Below are positions 11,297 through 63,709 of a stretch of DNA of 64,000 bases, in pieces. A program made the translations under genes and the position numbers. The notes under the pieces are model-generated. The model saw nothing but the letters and a program-made list of their open reading frames with translations. It ran no database searches and had not been told where the DNA came from. Source of the DNA: Octopus vulgaris (taxonomy: Eukaryota). The DNA is taken from assembly GCA_951406725.2 (NCBI GenBank), contig OX597815.1, positions 181,598,001-181,662,000 of the forward strand, given 5' to 3'. The first letter of the stretch is position 1, and the number at the start of each line of letters is the position of its first letter.

Positions 11297-11360
11297 AATG
11301 ATAATAATAATGATAATAATAATGATAATAATAATGATAATAATAATGATAATAATAATG

Positions 11361-11441
<81 letters not shown>

Positions 11442-11580
11442 TCGAAAAATACCTTAGGAATGAGAACCCAGGTTAGAATTTTCCCCAAGACACCTGATGA
11501 AGGCTGGAGAGTGTATCAGCCGAAACGTTGTGTTAACAACAAACACGAAGAGGATAAATATCTGTCAAATGTAAATAATA
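11297..11580 (+). mobile_element. tRNA-(AAT)n-hammerhead element, head missing
   Basis: (AAT)n then aacatcgaaaaataccttaggaatgagaacccagg...HHR...aaatgtaaataat, shared with other copies. Confidence 0.88.
11489..11534 (+). ncRNA. minimal type I hammerhead ribozyme (intact core)
   Basis: GACAC-CTGATGA-A-GGCTG(gagagtgtat)CAGCC-GAAA-C-GTT-GTGTT: helix I GACAC/GTGTT, helix II 5 bp, palindromic AACGTT helix III, GUU triplet. Confidence 0.85.
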
Positions 11581-11599
11581 TCTATAACCATTTGTTGTT

Positions 11600-26520: not shown

Positions 26521-26696
26521 ATTTAAGATATAAAGAACCTTATTTACATTATTTACATTTGACGGACATTTGTCCTCATCTTGTTTGCTGTTAACACATC
26601 ACTTCGGTTGATAAACCCTCCAGCCTTCATCAGGTGTCTTGGGGAAATTTCGAACCTGGGTTCTCATTCCTTAGGTATTTTTCGATGTTGTTGTTG

Positions 26697-26754
<58 letters not shown>

Positions 26755-26838
26755 CAACATCATCATTATTATTCAGGTCACTGCATGGAATCTTGGGATT
26801 AGTAGCCAGCGCTCTTAACCACTACGCCATAAGCCCGT
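26521..26838 (-). mobile_element. tRNA-(AAT)n-hammerhead element (HHR decayed, B-box deleted)
   Basis: minus strand: gggcttatggcgtagtggttaagagcgctggctactaatcccaagattcc...(AAT)n...gacacctgatgaaggctg...aaccgaagtgatgtgtt. Confidence 0.88.
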
Positions 26839-27126
26839 GGGTATATGGCGTAGTGGTTAAGAGTTTGATTCTAGGCAGTGACCTGAATAATAATAATAAT
26901 AATAATGAAGATGATGATAATAATAATAATGATGATGATGATAATAATAATGATGATGATGATAATAATGATGATGATAATAATAATAATGATGATGATA
27001 ATAATAATGATGATGATGATAATAATAATAATGATGATGATAATAATAATAATGATGATGATAATAATAATAATGATGATGATAATAATAATAATAATGA
27101 TGATGATAATAATAATAATGATGATG

Positions 27127-27186
<60 letters not shown>

Positions 27187-27303
27187 TTGAAAAATACCTG
27201 AGGAATGAGAACCCAAGTTCGAAATTTCCCCAAGACACCTGATGAGAGCTGGAAGGTATATCAGCCGAAACTTTATGCTAACAATAAACAAGATGAGGAC
27301 AAA
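26839..27303 (+). mobile_element. tRNA-(AAT/GAT)n-hammerhead element (HHR partly decayed)
   Basis: gggtatatggcgtagtggttaagag...gcagtgacctg(AAT/GAT)n...gacacctgatgagagctg...cagccgaaac. Confidence 0.88.
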
Positions 27304-32069: not shown

Positions 32070-33819
32070 GATGGTTTTCACAGCTAATGTGACAGATTCT
32101 AAGTTGTGGTTCGACCATCAAGAAATAGCAGTCAAATTTTACTCAAATTACACGCTTCCATTAAACAAAATGCAGGAGTATATTAGACCATTTAGTTCTA
32201 GATAGACAGGATAAATGCTGTTGAAATAGTTTTAACTATAGATTTCTTTATTGCCCACAAGGGGCTACACATAGAGAGGACAAACAAGGACAGACAAACA
32301 AGGACAGACAAACGGATTAAGTCGATTACATAGATCCCAGTGTGTAACTGGTACTTTATCGACCCCGAAAGGATGAAAGGCAAAGTCGACCTCGGTGGAA
32401 TTTGAACTCAGAACGTAACGGCAGACGAAATACCTATTTCTTTATTACCCAGAAGGGGCTAAACACAGAGGGGACAAACAAGGACAGATACACGGATTAA
32501 GTCGATTATATCAACCCCAGTGCGCAACTGGTACTTAAAAGGATGAAAGGCAAAGTCGACTTCGGCGGAATTTGAACTCAGAACGTAACGGCAGACGAAA
32601 TACCTATTTCTTTATTACCCACAAGGGGCTAAACACAGAGGGGACAAACAAGGACAGACATAAGTATTAAGTCGATTACATCGACTCCAGTGCGTAACTG
32701 GTACTTAATTTATCGACCCCGAAAGGATGAAAGGCAAAGTCGCCCTCGGCGGAATTTGAACCCAGAACGTAACGGCAGACGAAATACGGCTACGTATTTC
32801 GCCCGGCGTGCTAACGTTTCTGCCAGCTCGCCGCCTTAATAGTTTTAACTCTAGATCTGCTCCAAAACGATAAACAACACTAAAGCATAACAACAACAAC
32901 AATTAGTCATTTTACTATATTTTATATTGTATCCACGGAGCAAGCAAGCATCTCTATACCTAAGCCATCCTTTAATAAAGTTTGTTTTTTGCGCAGGTCA
33001 GCTTTAAAAACACAAACTTATGATCAAAATTATTCGAGTTTTTTTTCTTTTCAGGAAGAGTGTATCTGGGAATGTATTTGCAAATTGTCGGCTGAAAGTA
33101 AAAGTGCCATGGTTAAAATTTCTGAAAGCATTTTAAGAAATGAAAGACAGCCGTTAAAGGTGGGCTGTGAAAATGTAAAAGGTGGGAGGATCATCATCAT
33201 AATCATCATCACCACCAACACACACCACCACTACTTTGATCATCGTCGTCGTCGTCATCAATTGCCGTCCGGTTTCCATGGCTGCATAGGTTGAATGGAT
33301 CATCTCCAGTACAATACTCGATCATTTGTCAAGGACATATGCGGCAGACAGAGTCTCTGAGCTTCCATACCTTTCTCCTCCTAATCACCTTTGGGCCACC
33401 GAGCTTCAAACACTTTCAAATGAACAGCTGCTAACTTCAGTAGTTGCTCTATATGTTGGCCCCTACTTGGGGAAGGCTCCTTATTCTCTCACACAATCTT
33501 GTCATTCTGAAATCTGTTTCAGTAAGATTTCCCTGTCTCTTTATTTCTGACACTGGTAGTAGTAAGTGTTCTGCATCCTTTCTGCAAATACTTTCTCCTC
33601 TCAAATCACTAGTTGTTGTTATGGTTTAGTGTTGTTTATCGTTTTGGGGCAGATCTATAGTTAAAACTATTTCAACAGCATTTATCCTGTCTGCCTGTCT
33701 ACCTAGAACTATATGGTCTATTGTTTAATGGAAGCGTGTAATTTGAGTAAAATTTGACTGCTATTTCTTGACGGTCGAACAACAACTTAGAATCTGTCAC
33801 ATTAGCTGTTAAAACCATC
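32070..33819. repeat. inverted duplication (~210-230 bp); left arm 32070-32900 is split by a SINE, right arm 33612-33819
   Basis: gatggttttcacagctaatgtgacagattctaag... versus ...cttagaatctgtcacattagctgttaaaaccatc. Confidence 0.9.
32244..32837 (-). mobile_element. SINE family A trimer with 19-bp TSD
   Basis: one head + three bodies; TSD aatagttttaact(a/c)tagat at 32225-32243 and 32838-32856. Confidence 0.93.
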
Positions 33820-40581: not shown

Positions 40582-40917
40582 TGTTATGGATATACTGACT
40601 GAATAAAGACCACAATAATTTTGGTCTGAATGTATTTGAGCATATATTTGCTCAGTCTGGTTATCCAGAGACTAAAACAAACCAACAATAACAACAATAA
40701 ACACTGTTCTGCAATTAGCTGTTCAATATTTATCGGTATATCTATAGCACCAACATCATAATTTGTTTCAGTTTGCACTATCTTTGCTTTACTTCAAAAA
40801 TTTCGCCTGGTGGCTTACACTCTCTAAGCTAAAAATATTGTTTCTACAGTTCTATATTTAAGGGGCAACTACATTATTTACATTTAATGGATATTTGTCT
40901 TCATTTTGTTTGTTGTT

Positions 40918-40963
40918 AACACAACGTTTCAGCTGGTGTACTCTCCAGCCTTCATCAGATATC
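40918..40963 (-). ncRNA. minimal type I hammerhead (intact core, wobble helix I)
   Basis: minus: GATAT-CTGATGA-A-GGCTGG(agagtaca)CCAGCT-GAAA-C-GTT-GTGTT. Confidence 0.75.
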
Positions 40964-41068
40964 TTGGGGAAATTTCGAACCTGGGTTCTCATTCCTAAGG
41001 TATTTTTCGATGTTATTATTATAGTTCTATATTCAAGAGATGAGGAAGTATGAACATTATTTCCCTGA

Positions 41069-41114
41069 GACACCTGATGAAGGCTGGAGTGTATATCAGC
41101 TGAAACGTTGTGTT
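41069..41114 (+). ncRNA. minimal type I hammerhead (intact core)
   Basis: GACAC-CTGATGA-A-GGCTG(gagtgtatat)CAGCT-GAAA-C-GTT-GTGTT. Confidence 0.82.
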
Positions 41115-41187
41115 AATAACAAACAAGATGAGGGCAAATATCCATCAAATGTAAATAATGTCATTATTATCATTATTATCATTATCA

Positions 41188-41244
<57 letters not shown>

Positions 41245-41962
41245 TCACTGCCTGGAATCGAACTAGGAATCTTGGAGTTAATAGCCAGCTCTCTTAACCA
41301 ATACACCATATGCCCATGTTTGTTTCTTCCTTTCCTTTCTTCTTTCTTTTTCTTTTTTCCTCTCTTATTGATACTTGTCCATGCATTAGATCTTTTTAGT
41401 TTGACAGACTTATCTCAGTTTTATCCACATAGATATAGTTTTTCATGTCCATTGCAAAAACACAAGCATTTTTTGACAAAATTAATAAAGAAAACATTAT
41501 GAAACTTCAAATTTTACCATCATTTGTAATTTTAGCCACACGGGTCAACTTATTCTCAACATCCCATCCAGCAGATGATGTTATCTGTACATGTTCCCAA
41601 ACAGATGAAACCATCCTGGATCTGGCTTAGAGGTTACAAGTTATAGCTAGTGCTTGGGGCTGTGTTTAGAATTTAATTTAATTAGTTTAGTATCAGAGTT
41701 CAGGGTTTTCCCATGATATTGCCATGTCGTGTACAGAATGGATAGATCTGACTGGCTAAAACTACCAACATTTTCAATCTTTGAATATATAATATTTGAT
41801 TAATAGCAACAGAAGTGGTATTAATTCCAAAGACAATCTTTATCTTCAGCTTAATGTGGATAATCCCACTGGCCATTTGTGATGTCAGTATCTAAATGGA
41901 CAATGAAATTCTGTATATCGTTGATAGAAGAATTCAGCTGCTATGTTGCTACTAAATATCTG

Positions 41963-42574: not shown

Positions 42575-43365
42575 GGTATGTATTCCATATAGCTTTCCGT
42601 TAGTTTCACAAGTGATCAGATGCAAAAGATACAAAAGATGTCCGTGTGACATCAGGCCAGTATTCAGAAGAAATACAACACTTTGCAAATATCTCCTCTG
42701 AGTAAAACCACCAACAGAAGAGAATATGACCAAAGACTGCGTGTACTCCATCCCATGCAGTTGTGGTAGATTATACAAAGGCAAAACATGCCACCCCTTT
42801 AAAATAAGAGTAGAGGAACATCATAAAGCTGTTACAAGAGGGGATATTGAAAAATTGGGTATAGCTGATTATGTATGGAAAAACAGAGACCACCTCCCGC
42901 TGTGGGATGAAGTTAAAATAATAGACAGAGAACACCACTGGAAAATACGAAAACTAAAAGAAGCAGCACATATGTTAGGACACAACAACCTCCTAAGCAG
43001 ATATGAGTAGAATATGGGAACTAGTATTGAGTAAAGATAAACTATTATGTTTTTTAGGCCCTAAAATTCACTCTATAATTGCCTACTAGCATATAGCACA
43101 ATAGATAAGAGTGTGGGCTACTAACCCTCGGATTCTGAGTTCAATTCCAGGCAGGGACTTGGGAAATAATCTCAATAGAAAAAATAACATCAGCAAAAAG
43201 AATACCTTAGGAATGAGAACAGAGGACCCTATTAGTCAAATAAAGGGTTGGGTTCAAAATTTCACCAGAACACCTGGTGAAGGCTGGAGAGTAAATCAGC
43301 TGAAACATTGTGGTAACAACAAACAAGGTGAGAACAAATATCCATCAATTGTAAAGAGTGTATAA
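42575..43365 (+). mobile_element. Penelope-like element 3' fragment: GIY-YIG endonuclease relic (42726-43010) followed by tRNA-like head and decayed HHR
   Basis: DCVYSIPCSCGRLYKGKT...IRVEEHHKA...WDEVKIIDRE...RKLKEA is the PLE GIY-YIG signature; head at ~43088-43162; cacctggtgaaggctg...cagctgaaacattgtg at 43269-43314. Confidence 0.88.
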
Positions 43366-43440: not shown

Positions 43441-43623
43441 ACAGTTTTATATTTAAGAGATGAGGAATTATGTACATTATTTACATTTGATGGATATTTG
43501 TCCTCATCTAAACGATGATGATGATGATGATGACGTTTCAGCTGATATACCCTCCAGCCTTCATCAGGTGTCTTGAAACCTGGGTTCTCATTCCTAAGGT
43601 ATTTTTCAATGTTATTATTATTA

Positions 43624-43688
<65 letters not shown>

Positions 43689-43762
43689 TCACTGCCTGGA
43701 ATCGAACTTGGAATCTTGGGGCTAGTAGCCTGCGCTCTTAACCACTATGCCATATGCCTGTG
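43441..43762 (-). mobile_element. tRNA-(AAT)n-hammerhead element, nearly complete
   Basis: minus: ggcatatggcatagtggttaagagcgcaggctactagccccaagattccaagttcgattccaggcagtgacctg(AAT)n...HHR core 43532-43572...tail cataattcctcatctcttaaatataaaactgt. Confidence 0.9.
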
Positions 43763-45824: not shown

Positions 45825-46490
45825 GGGGCAGAATGTTAGCATACTTAGCGAAATGCTTAGTAGTATTTTGTCTGTCTTTAAATTCTGAGTTCAAATTCCG
45901 CCTAAGTCATCTTTGCTTTTCATCCTTTTGGAGTCAATAAATTAAGTACCAGTTGCATACTGGGGTCGATCTAATCAAATGGTCCCCTCTTCAAAATTTT
46001 TGGGCCTTGTGCCTAGAGTAGAAGAGAAACGTAAGCTTGCTAGGTGAAATGTTTAGCGGTATTTCATTTGTCTTTACGTTCTGAGTACAAATTCTGCAGA
46101 GGTTGACTTAGCCTTTCATCCTTTCGAGGTCAATAAATTAAGTACCAGTTGTATCCTGGGGTCGATCTAATTGATAGGCTCCTTCACCAAAATTTTCAGG
46201 CCTCATGCCTAGAGAAGAAAAGAAACTTTAGCACACTGGGTGAAATGCTTAGCAGTATTTTGTCTGTCTTTACATTCTGAGTTCAAATTCTGCTGAGGTC
46301 GACTTTGCCTTTTATCCTTTCAGGGTCATTATATTAAGTACCAGTTGCGTACTGGGGTCAATGAGGTCAGCTTAGCCTTTCATCCTTTCGAGGTCAATAA
46401 ATTAAGTACTAGATGTGTACTGGGGCTGATCTAATCGACTGGTCCCTTCCCCCAAAATTTTGGGCCTTGTGCCTAAAGTAGAGAAAAATA
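45825..46490 (+). mobile_element. SINE family A tandem multimer (alternative tail ...gggccttgtgcctagagtagaa)
   Basis: three to four consecutive bodies. Confidence 0.87.
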
Positions 46491-46840: not shown

Positions 46841-47337
46841 ACTTATATCAGCTTATAATTTACAATTTAATCTTCCTCAGAATAAATATTTATACTAATT
46901 TCTTGAATTATGAAAAAAAAAAAGAAAAGAACCCTGAAAAGCGATGAAATTAATGAATTATTTAATTGGTTTTATTTTTATCTGAAAACTCTAATTTCCT
47001 TCAACATCAAAAATAACTTGGTACAACTTTCTTAGTTCAATATGTTCATAGTTTTGAAACAAGGTGAAAACACTAATTGGAGAATAATCTTATTTATTAG
47101 CAATAGACATCAATTATCTTAATGATATTCCAACTAAAGAATTTGCAGAGAGTCTTAGAGGTTAATGTGTTTGTCATATTGCTTATGTCTTTTATCAGAG
47201 TTAATACTGATAAAAGGAGAAAACTAATAAATGGTAACAAGTCCTTCTCACTTATGATATATTAGAATTTAAATCTTAAGGCATGGTTTCTTCATAGCAA
47301 TATACTAAATATTCCTTTAAAACTAATTTTAGTTTAT

Positions 47338-47890
47338 ACAGTTCTATATTTGAGAGATGAGGATTTATGTACATTATTTACATTTGACGGATATTTGTTC
47401 TCAACTAGTTTGTTGTTAATGGGGTCTGGGAAGCCAGGAGGCTGCACCGGCCCCAGTCTGAATCTGGCAGTGATTCATGCACTGATATCTATATCTTAAA
47501 ATCAAGTTATTATTTTTACATACTAAAGTCTCTCTCTGGTCAAAAGGGTCAGAATAAGGAATGGTGAGCATTCAGGGTTTTGGTAGGAAATGTTTTTCTG
47601 GTGTATTAGTAATTGAATGGTGTGAATGATGTTGGATTGATTTTCGTTCAATAAAGGTATTTTAATGCTGCTAGCATTCTATTGCTGCATTGCAGAATTT
47701 TTTTGATTCTTGCGACCCTTTTACAAAGTCAATTTTGCCCTTCGGGTACTACATGGTGTAGTGGTTAAGGGCACGGGCTACTAACCCCAAGATTCTGAGT
47801 TCAATTCCGGGCAGTGACCTGAATAATAATAATAACATTGAAAAATACCTTAGGAATGAGAACCCAGGTTCAAAATTTCCCCAAGACACC
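47338..47890. mobile_element. split HHR element (tail on minus 47338-47419, head on plus 47751-47890) enclosing a 331-bp inverted copy of 51114-51444
   Basis: 47420-47750 is the reverse complement of 51114-51444 (about 12 differences by eye). Confidence 0.9.
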
Positions 47891-62633: not shown

Positions 62634-63045
62634 GCCAGCTGGCAGAACCGTTAGCACGCCGGGTGAAATGCTTAGCGGTATTTCATCTGCCACTACGTTC
62701 TGAGTTCAAATTCCGCTGAGGTTGGCTTTGCTTTTCATCCTTTCGGGGTTGATTAAATAAGTACCAGTTATGCACTGGAGTCGATGTAATCGACTTAATC
62801 CGTTTGTCTATCCTTGTTTGTCCACTCTATATTTAGCTCCTTGTAGGTAGTAAAGAAATGGGTATTTCGTCTGCCGTTACATTCTGAGTTCAAATTCCGC
62901 CGAGCTCGGCTTTGCTTTTCATCCTTTCGGGGTTGATTAAATAAGTACCAGTTATACACTGGGGTTGATGTAATCGACTGAATCCGTTTATCTGTCCTTG
63001 TTTGTTCACTCTGTGTTTAGCCCCTTGTGGGTAGTAAAGAAATAG
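62634..63045 (+). mobile_element. SINE family A dimer
   Basis: one head, two bodies joined at aaagaaatg|ggtatttcg. Confidence 0.9.
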
Positions 63046-63709
63046 GTTAGTGTGAGACCTGAGGAAGGACATTATAACTGATGAGAGCAGAGTAGACAAC
63101 TATATAGAGTGGCAATGGATGGTGGTCATATGGAATTAACTAGATTTGTGTGATAGAACCCTTGTTGTTCGTATAGGATAGGAAAAAGCAGGAGACATCA
63201 CATATACAGACTGACTCTTCCATCACCTTAAGGCTTTCAAGACATGGAACAGTAAATTAGATCACCATAAAGAAACATCTGTATGTCATTGGATTATAGT
63301 GATGAACACTTGTATGACACGAGTACCATTCTCTGAGTTTCTGTGAGTAATTCCTAGTGACAGGCCAAAACAAGATGACCCTTAAAACCACAGTTTTTAC
63401 ATCAGAGTGTCCCTCTCCAAGAACGATGCTTTGACAACAGTTTGGGGTCCATCACTCCCAGTGGTTTTTTCCAAGTAACTTGATACCAGCCAAGGGTATT
63501 TCTCTGTCCCTGCTCAGGTGAAATGTCCTCTCACATGCTATTAACCAGTGGCTGAGACCCTGACAGGTGATACTACACCAGATCAGTGTTGACCCAGGAA
63601 CAAAAGTGGTTAAAATGTGGTTCCAAATGCCACAAAACACTGGAACTCTTGAACTATAACTCCACTAATATATGCAATTTAAAGTCACACCCAGGACAGA
63701 AAGACACAC

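Follow-up and report, generated by a model that had tools for sequence, protein, structure and literature searches.

A tRNA-headed, hammerhead-bearing repeat of Octopus vulgaris as the probable terminal repeat of a decayed Penelope/Poseidon-type element

Introduction

The autonomous partners of SINEs are LINEs in the literature surveyed here, and Pol III promoters within terminal repeats occur there only in non-autonomous LTR elements. The octopus SINEs OK, OR1 and OR2 were reportedly described by Ohshima and Okada in 1994, and the SMalpha repeat of Schistosoma is tRNA-like. OR2 has been named a CORE SINE (PMC4758252), and the autonomous partners of the TRIMp3 elements have been argued to require Pol II (PMC10886601).

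For Penelope-type elements (PLEs), an inverted arm combined with a one-sided tail of 30-40 nt has been described (PMC8557442). The PAc element of Anolis nicks ATT on both strands and initiates reverse transcription internally at two adjacent sites, and its hammerhead is dispensable for insertion in vitro (PMC11167929). The minimal hammerheads of animal PLEs showed no activity as monomers and low activity as dimers (PMC4209133). Non-LTR retrozymes are described as derivatives of PLEs (10.64898/2026.07.22.740005; PMC7761336).

We analysed 64 kb of Octopus vulgaris DNA (hereafter the window). The repeat at 43441-43762 is probably the terminal repeat (pLTR) of a decayed protein-coding Penelope/Poseidon element with a tRNA-derived head, an element which was likely read by Pol III and likely shed thousands of short SINE-like copies. 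No paper on a tRNA-headed PLE pLTR or on a PLE-mobilised SINE was found in the full-text literature, a body of text with few subscription papers and with Repbase and Dfam outside its scope. The available text of a 2026 octopus repeat annotation (PMC13282606), whose repeat library and supplements were outside the scope, holds no description of the family.

Results

Copies of the repeat in the window

A preliminary description of the window had counted at least seven full or partial copies of one repeat and listed seven stretches. All seven stretches contain pieces of a single family. They are not, however, seven collinear units: headless, paired, nested and split copies occur among them. Both the existence of the family and its modular make-up were confirmed. 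Genome-wide, the 29-nt tail motif has 2,895 exact matches and the 22-nt head motif has 4,356, with none for the reversed control of either.

The focal copy (43441-43762) lies on the minus strand. Its tRNA-Arg-like head (43685-43758) matches a genomic head at 91%, has its best matches, out of 35 genomic tRNA sequences, with tRNA-Arg, and contains the A box at 43752-43742 and the B box at 43708-43698. The (AAT)n tract (43612-43684), which is the 5' untranslated part of the pLTR, is followed by a linker (43573-43610) with a 10-bp deletion and with the predicted ORF start codon at 43591-43589. The minimal type I hammerhead (43530-43572) keeps its core CTGATGA...GAAAC (43567-43535). The 3' strand of helix I is replaced by a (CAT)n run, and the focal copy therefore has no complete hammerhead. 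The tail (43441-43529) reaches the long 3' end, including a Penelope-type extension of about 32 nt, and is coding in the parent element.

Also in the window, alignment to the family identified a 5'-truncated Penelope/Poseidon element with the end of a GIY-YIG endonuclease (42624-43362, plus strand). It consists of an open piece at 42702-43010, a short 3' UTR, a diverged head from 43089, a broken hammerhead and the short 3' end. The supposed copy at 43088-43362 is the terminus of this longer element. Pfam at E 0.05 left the endonuclease piece unmatched, and its identity rests on the alignment to the family. The element matches the family majority at 81% and probably belongs to an older subfamily. 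The stretch 43089-43362 and locus L148 represent a diverged variant with additional linker bases, in which the window copy has no clean AAT tract; this variant is probably an older subfamily that was already equipped with the head.

The remaining copies are differently arranged. Two pLTR arms are joined head to head at the palindromic leader at 26521-27303 (26521-26851, minus strand; 26839-27303, plus strand). At 11297-11587 (plus strand) a headless arm consists of (AAT)n, linker, an intact hammerhead core (11494-11525) and the short 3' end. The full copy at 40845-41318 (minus strand) extends from head to long tail; nested within it is an inverted piece (41059-41168, plus strand) with a hammerhead core at 41074-41105. 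The stretch 47329-47890 is composed of a minus-strand long tail fragment (47329-47419) and a plus-strand head with short (AAT)n and linker (47753-47890), the latter broken off ahead of the hammerhead core, with about 330 bp between them. Elsewhere in the window, the stretches 32293-32787, 45850-46425 and 62677-63047 are tandem pieces, with periods of 170-196, of another abundant SINE-like repeat.

Sixty 10-kb stretches sampled at fixed positions of the 2.8-Gb genome contained six insertion loci, which scales very roughly to 28,000 insertions in total (Poisson range about 10,000-61,000, calculated by hand). The copies diverge by about 5.5-6% from the majority sequence, which the rate given in the available text of PMC13282606 converts to roughly 15-18 million years.

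Linkage to a Penelope/Poseidon reading frame

Three of the 30 loci chosen solely on the tail (L178, L179 and L198) have the terminal part of a GIY-YIG ORF immediately ahead of the head. Of 28 loci chosen on the RT region, 22 (two duplicates) have a head in the same orientation at a distance of 400-500 nt downstream, and of 30 chosen on the 5' part of the ORF, 12 have the tail leading directly into the ORF. Genome-wide there are 70 exact tail-to-ORF junctions. Four loci (L390, L394, L395 and L396) each span the upstream pLTR, the ORF and the downstream pLTR.

The majority of 66 fragments is a unit of 2,658 nt that comprises the head, the AAT tract and one ORF of 835 codons for RT and GIY-YIG endonuclease. 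The ORF opens with an ATG inside the linker, and 29 nt separate its stop from the next head. The endonuclease is C-terminal to the RT; the ORF has a DKG motif and no Zn-finger linker. Real pieces of it are found at L231 and in the window at 42702-43010. The 835-aa majority protein is 56% identical over 829 aa to the protein P0010, in which the hammerhead-coded N-terminal peptide is kept (pairwise E 1e-5). It clusters with Poseidon-type proteins, apart from the Neptune- and Hydra-type elements of this genome, where the clade names are assigned by motif rather than by a labelled reference and Hydra is a long, unsure branch. It should be noted that this protein is a consensus derived from decayed copies. 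None of the best 150 of 4,840 candidates has an intact ORF, the longest frame being 569 aa, and the family appears to be dead in this genome.

Two other PLEs were tried as partners of the repeat and rejected. Neither the Neptune-type PLE (781-aa ORF) nor the Hydra-type PLE shares the 3' end, and both were kept as controls. The Neptune-type PLE (L061-L064) is young, with many near-identical ORFs, an upstream ORF, (TA)n ends and a degenerate hammerhead-like motif in its pLTR. The Hydra-type PLE (L101-L110, L066) is abundant, with 14,179 first-look candidates, and a long Asn-rich insertion separates its RT from its endonuclease. A fragment at L121 (9329-9900, minus strand) belongs to a further PLE type, the endonuclease of which is unlike those of the three families studied.

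The preliminary description had regarded the repeat as a separate non-autonomous SINE/retrozyme. This view is not supported: the unit forms the terminal repeat of a Poseidon-type element, its short copies show no sequence lineage of their own, and its linker, hammerhead and tail together encode the first 52 residues of the ORF product. An independent non-autonomous SINE or retrozyme could still have borrowed a PLE end and spread by self-cleaved or circular RNA, and the ORF is indeed absent upstream in about three quarters of the head-bearing copies. However, short and ORF-linked copies agree in sequence and are equally diverged. No diagnostic positions were found between 54 short and 34 ORF-linked heads, or between 45 short and 32 ORF-linked bodies. 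As judged from these alignments, the short copies are without a sequence lineage of their own and are indistinguishable from the ORF-linked ones. We also tried a free SINE consisting of head and (AAT)n. The body is absent at 8 of 70 head loci, several of them beside an inverted arm or another repeat, and no separate family was shown.

The hammerhead

The majority motif folds with a helix I of 5 bp, a helix II of 6 bp and an extra A after A9. Its helix III region is self-complementary, and the predicted cut after GUU falls at ORF codon 23-24. The minimal type I hammerhead of the preliminary description is thus a fold of the PLE kind in the family majority, but it does not hold for the focal copy, in which helix I is incomplete.

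Borrowing by an independent retrozyme would agree with the pattern of minimal hammerheads, since the extra base after A9 and the palindromic helix III fit that pattern (PMC4209133), and with the subfamily-like variation at the free core position N7, which is A in 59 of 258 copies. The preferential conservation of the core that had been looked for was not seen, however. In 300 distinct alignments the core changed at 4.0% and other non-CpG sites at 4.8%, and the core is intact in 110 of 247 spanning copies. The hammerhead cores decay neutrally in dispersed copies. Nor were head-to-tail arrays of the short unit seen in the window; only locus L025 has a small tandem, with hammerhead-region units of about 75 bp in an inverted arm, which is a possible seed of a retrozyme-like array. 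Together with the placement of the 3' ends described below, these facts make the independent SINE or retrozyme improbable.

There is another possible interpretation of the motif, namely that it is coding sequence only and was never part of a cleaved RNA. The motif is part of the ORF, codon 23 being the site of the predicted cut, it decays neutrally in the copies, and GUU is a less common hammerhead cut triplet. Nevertheless, the motif is found at the equal position in many metagenome Poseidon-type relatives, and the PAc hammerhead, which overlaps the ORF start too, cleaves with the protein present (PMC11167929). We consider a purely coding role very improbable. As a monomer the predicted hammerhead probably has no activity, and insertion probably does not require it.

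The tRNA-like head and the start of copies

The majority head has an intact A box at position 8 and an intact B box at position 52. The head was aligned to 35 tRNA sequences collected from the genome with RF00005, which represent seven isotypes; tRNA-Arg gave 49-51 identities of about 75, and the six other isotypes gave 36-47. The resemblance to tRNA-Arg noticed earlier is therefore confirmed as the best alignment among the seven isotypes. No head or hammerhead was called in the window by Rfam (gathering threshold) or ARAGORN, and Rfam at E<=10 gave no tRNA or hammerhead match on 12 loci; the head is judged tRNA-like from its two boxes and from how it aligns with tRNAs of the same genome. At L360 there is a tRNA-Cys cluster, some variants of which were called Cys(aca) and Ser(act) by ARAGORN.

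The 5' ends of copies were analyzed in the first 70 of the 4,356 head-motif matches, all on one contig (C1) and including two or three near-duplicates. Homology to the parent element stops at -7 to +3 of the head start in 55 of the 70 (hereafter the start wall). It ends at -8 to -25 in none, and in the other 15 it continues for 26 to more than 800 nt upstream into the ORF. From the upstream truncation rate, about 1.8 ends of 68 would be expected in a window of the size of the wall. As a replicate, we used loci not chosen on the head. There, 36 of 66 head-bearing arms reach the head start and 27 of the 36 stop at it (five of the 27 read -14 to -19 as the alignment overshoots the junction), while 9 extend at least 66 nt upstream. 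Among the tail-to-ORF loci, 50 of 70 were checked; five reach the head and all five end at the wall. The copy at L263/L385 also stops at the wall and continues about 900 nt beyond the tail. Counter to the wall, the ORF-linked upstream repeat of L271 goes past the head into the 3' UTR.

The start wall admits a second explanation. The head might be a passenger, that is, a tRNA pseudogene or a simple (AAT)n-tailed SINE that inserted into the UTR of a Penelope driven by Pol II. The short copies would then be ordinary 5'-truncated PLE ends, piling up at the head through a Pol II start or through a palindrome joint or RT stop. An internal promoter without a TATA box is present in the pLTR of the D. 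virilis Penelope (PMC2377424), and a Pol II start in the pLTR of this kind would equally yield the wall. Solo pLTR ends with minimal hammerheads are also common in animal genomes (PMC4209133). An inverted arm is present in 38 of the 55 wall copies, several of them joined at the palindrome at -7 to +5, which could attract junctions by itself. In addition, the summed contig depth on L223 showed no step at the head start, where summed depth is not equivalent to copy number and the L223 head is mutated and adjoins a skipped repeat. Contigs of presumed RNA runs cover head, body and ORF, and starts, ends and strand are unreadable from contigs.

Other observations weigh against a passenger head. The remaining 17 of the 55 wall copies have no detected long inverted arm, and the wall is therefore not solely an effect of inversion. 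An intact A box follows the wall at a distance of about 15 nt, which is the spacing of a tRNA-gene leader. Both boxes are intact in the majority, and the unit has no other non-coding sequence for a promoter. A passenger head thus seems unlikely to us. The Pol III transcription proposed in the preliminary description is probably supported by the start wall. Taken with the lack of T4 runs described below, the wall suggests that the element was likely transcribed by Pol III. In 31 other Poseidon-type loci with sufficient downstream DNA, no pair of A and B boxes was found downstream of the ORF. Relaxed ARAGORN matches downstream of metagenome Poseidon ORFs were treated as noise.

Insertion anatomy

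The 3' ends were examined in 137 cases from loci not chosen on the tail. Short ends (66) and long ends, about 32 nt further (49), predominate; 4 lie between them, 8 earlier and 10 later. Instead of the single tail of about 70 nt assumed previously, there are two lengths, about 53 or 85 nt past the predicted cut. Except for the 8 scattered ends, no pile-up was found from the cut site to the short end. The cut site is therefore not a marker of copy ends, which stands against spreading by self-cleaved RNA.

Among 38 head-to-head arm pairs (some loci double-counted), 22 combine a long with a short end and none combines two long ends. The target duplication score is at least 9 in 24 of the 38 pairs and in 18 of 300 mismatched controls, with a median duplication of 13 bp. 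Mobilisation by Penelope machinery, as had been supposed, is supported by the one-sided tail, the inverted arms and the target site duplication of about 13 bp. The long end is followed by A in 26 of 30, T in 21 of 30 and T in 18 of 30 cases. Since the ORF continues past the long end with the same letters (A, T, T), target preference and microhomology are indistinguishable here. A quasi-palindrome spans the leader and the beginning of the head and is a frequent joint of the inverted arms.

Some copies have other structures. Headless copies (11297-11440; L004, L196, L253 and L484) often begin where another repeat ends in an (AAT)n tail, a pattern that would arise if the AAT tract annealed to a resident AAT microsatellite at insertion. 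At L017 the flanks of an inverted pair are inverted over about 28 bp rather than directly duplicated.

Runs of T in the unit

The sense strand of the 2,658-nt unit has 14 T3 runs and no run of T4 or longer. The numbers of T4+ runs expected in the ORF are 3.0 by synonymous shuffle (P 0.034), 3.2 by codon shuffle (P 0.019), 2.4 by a first-order Markov model (P 0.09) and 1.8 by a second-order one (P 0.17). In seven PLE ORF stretches of the same genome, used as controls, the number of such runs is 2-15. In the metagenome controls (the 46 of 79 loci with at least 1.2 kb of Poseidon-type sequence) there are 293 T4+ runs, compared with 215 expected, and three short stretches have zero. By fits to controls, the absence of T4 gives P 0.002-0.007. 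For the T3:T4 ratio, P is 0.011, rising to 0.045 when the controls are T-poor. Seven real near-full copies have 10 T4 runs against about 38 expected, but all derive from one source. The unit also has 13 G3 runs and no G4 run. Since G4 runs are equally absent, zero T4 is possible without a terminator argument, and the absence of T4 may be taken as a weak hint of Pol III reading of the whole element.

It is conceivable that the entire 2.66-kb protein-coding unit was a Pol III transcript, that is, that an autonomous retrotransposon ran on a captured tRNA promoter and was kept T4-free. Such a transcript would be possible because the PLE RT would start inside the RNA and no defined 3' end would be needed. 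Besides the T4-free sense strand, copies starting at the head extend up to 900 nt beyond the tail into the ORF. On the other hand, the missing G4 runs, the P of 0.17 in the second-order Markov model and the unexplained translation of an uncapped RNA speak against it. We therefore put the whole-unit transcript forward tentatively and regard it as rather doubtful.

Discussion

We favor the explanation that the repeat is the pLTR of a decayed Poseidon-type element whose tRNA-derived head probably served Pol III. Pol III would start about 7-10 nt ahead of the tRNA-like 5' end and, without a T4 terminator, would run on into the ORF or the flank. The element protein, if it acts like that of PAc, would nick AT-rich DNA on both strands, and reverse transcription would begin inside the RNA at two tail sites. 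As the RT would initiate internally at these sites, the RNA would not need a defined 3' end, and any RNA with the two tail sites could become a template. Two cDNAs would join end to end, often via the quasi-palindrome at the junction of leader and head. The short SINE-like copies would stem from transcripts of solo or downstream pLTRs, and the longer 5'-truncated ones from transcripts covering the ORF.

If this is true, a PLE with a tRNA-headed terminal repeat could give rise to SINE-like progeny directly, and a distinct SINE lineage would not be required. Annotation pipelines would also easily divide a family of very roughly 28,000 insertions into 'SINE' and 'Penelope'. If Pol III did read the whole ORF, this would contradict the usual view that protein-coding retrotransposons are read by Pol II (or by Pol I read-through). 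It would also provide a simple system for the role of the PLE hammerhead and for the translation of an uncapped retroelement RNA. Direct tests are limited because the family is apparently dead in this genome.

The octopus element resembles the Penelope/Poseidon PLEs (available text of PMC11167929, PMC2377424 and PMC8557442) in its single ORF with RT, C-terminal GIY-YIG endonuclease and DKG motif, in its partial-tandem pLTR, in the hammerhead overlapping the ORF start and in the promoter position in the pLTR. The inverted 5' arm, the one-sided tail of 30-40 nt and the ATT-rich target are also alike. It differs from them in that its pLTR opens with a tRNA-derived A/B-box segment and (AAT)n, where most copies begin. 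The Penelope promoter is LINE-like and TATA-less, with an intron (PMC2377424), whereas the octopus element needs no intron.

With the tRNA-derived SINEs (SINE2) the repeat shares the A/B-box tRNA head, 5' ends at this head, a 3' end in common with an autonomous partner, and high copy number. In contrast to them, it is paired with a PLE instead of a LINE, the short unit lies wholly within this partner, and no poly(A) or repeat tail is present at the 3' end. The short form is set beside the octopus SINEs OK, OR1 and OR2, also of SINE2, by description rather than by sequence. The TRIMp3 elements Cassandra, Helenus and Ajax (PMC10886601) likewise have a small-RNA-derived Pol III promoter within a retrotransposon terminal repeat. 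They are, however, short non-autonomous LTR elements with PBS and PPT, while the octopus tRNA head belongs to a protein-coding PLE.

Schistosoma SMalpha (PMC8490949) is SINE-like and has a hammerhead, as the octopus repeat does. Short repeats with a type I hammerhead and a relationship to PLE pLTRs are also found among the non-LTR retrozymes (PMC7761336; 10.64898/2026.07.22.740005). As described in the available text, the retrozymes are tandem and promoter-less and make circular RNA. The octopus family consists of dispersed single or head-to-head copies rather than the hammerhead-bearing tandem units that mark a retrozyme, and these copies have a promoter-like head and ends that lie off the predicted cut site.
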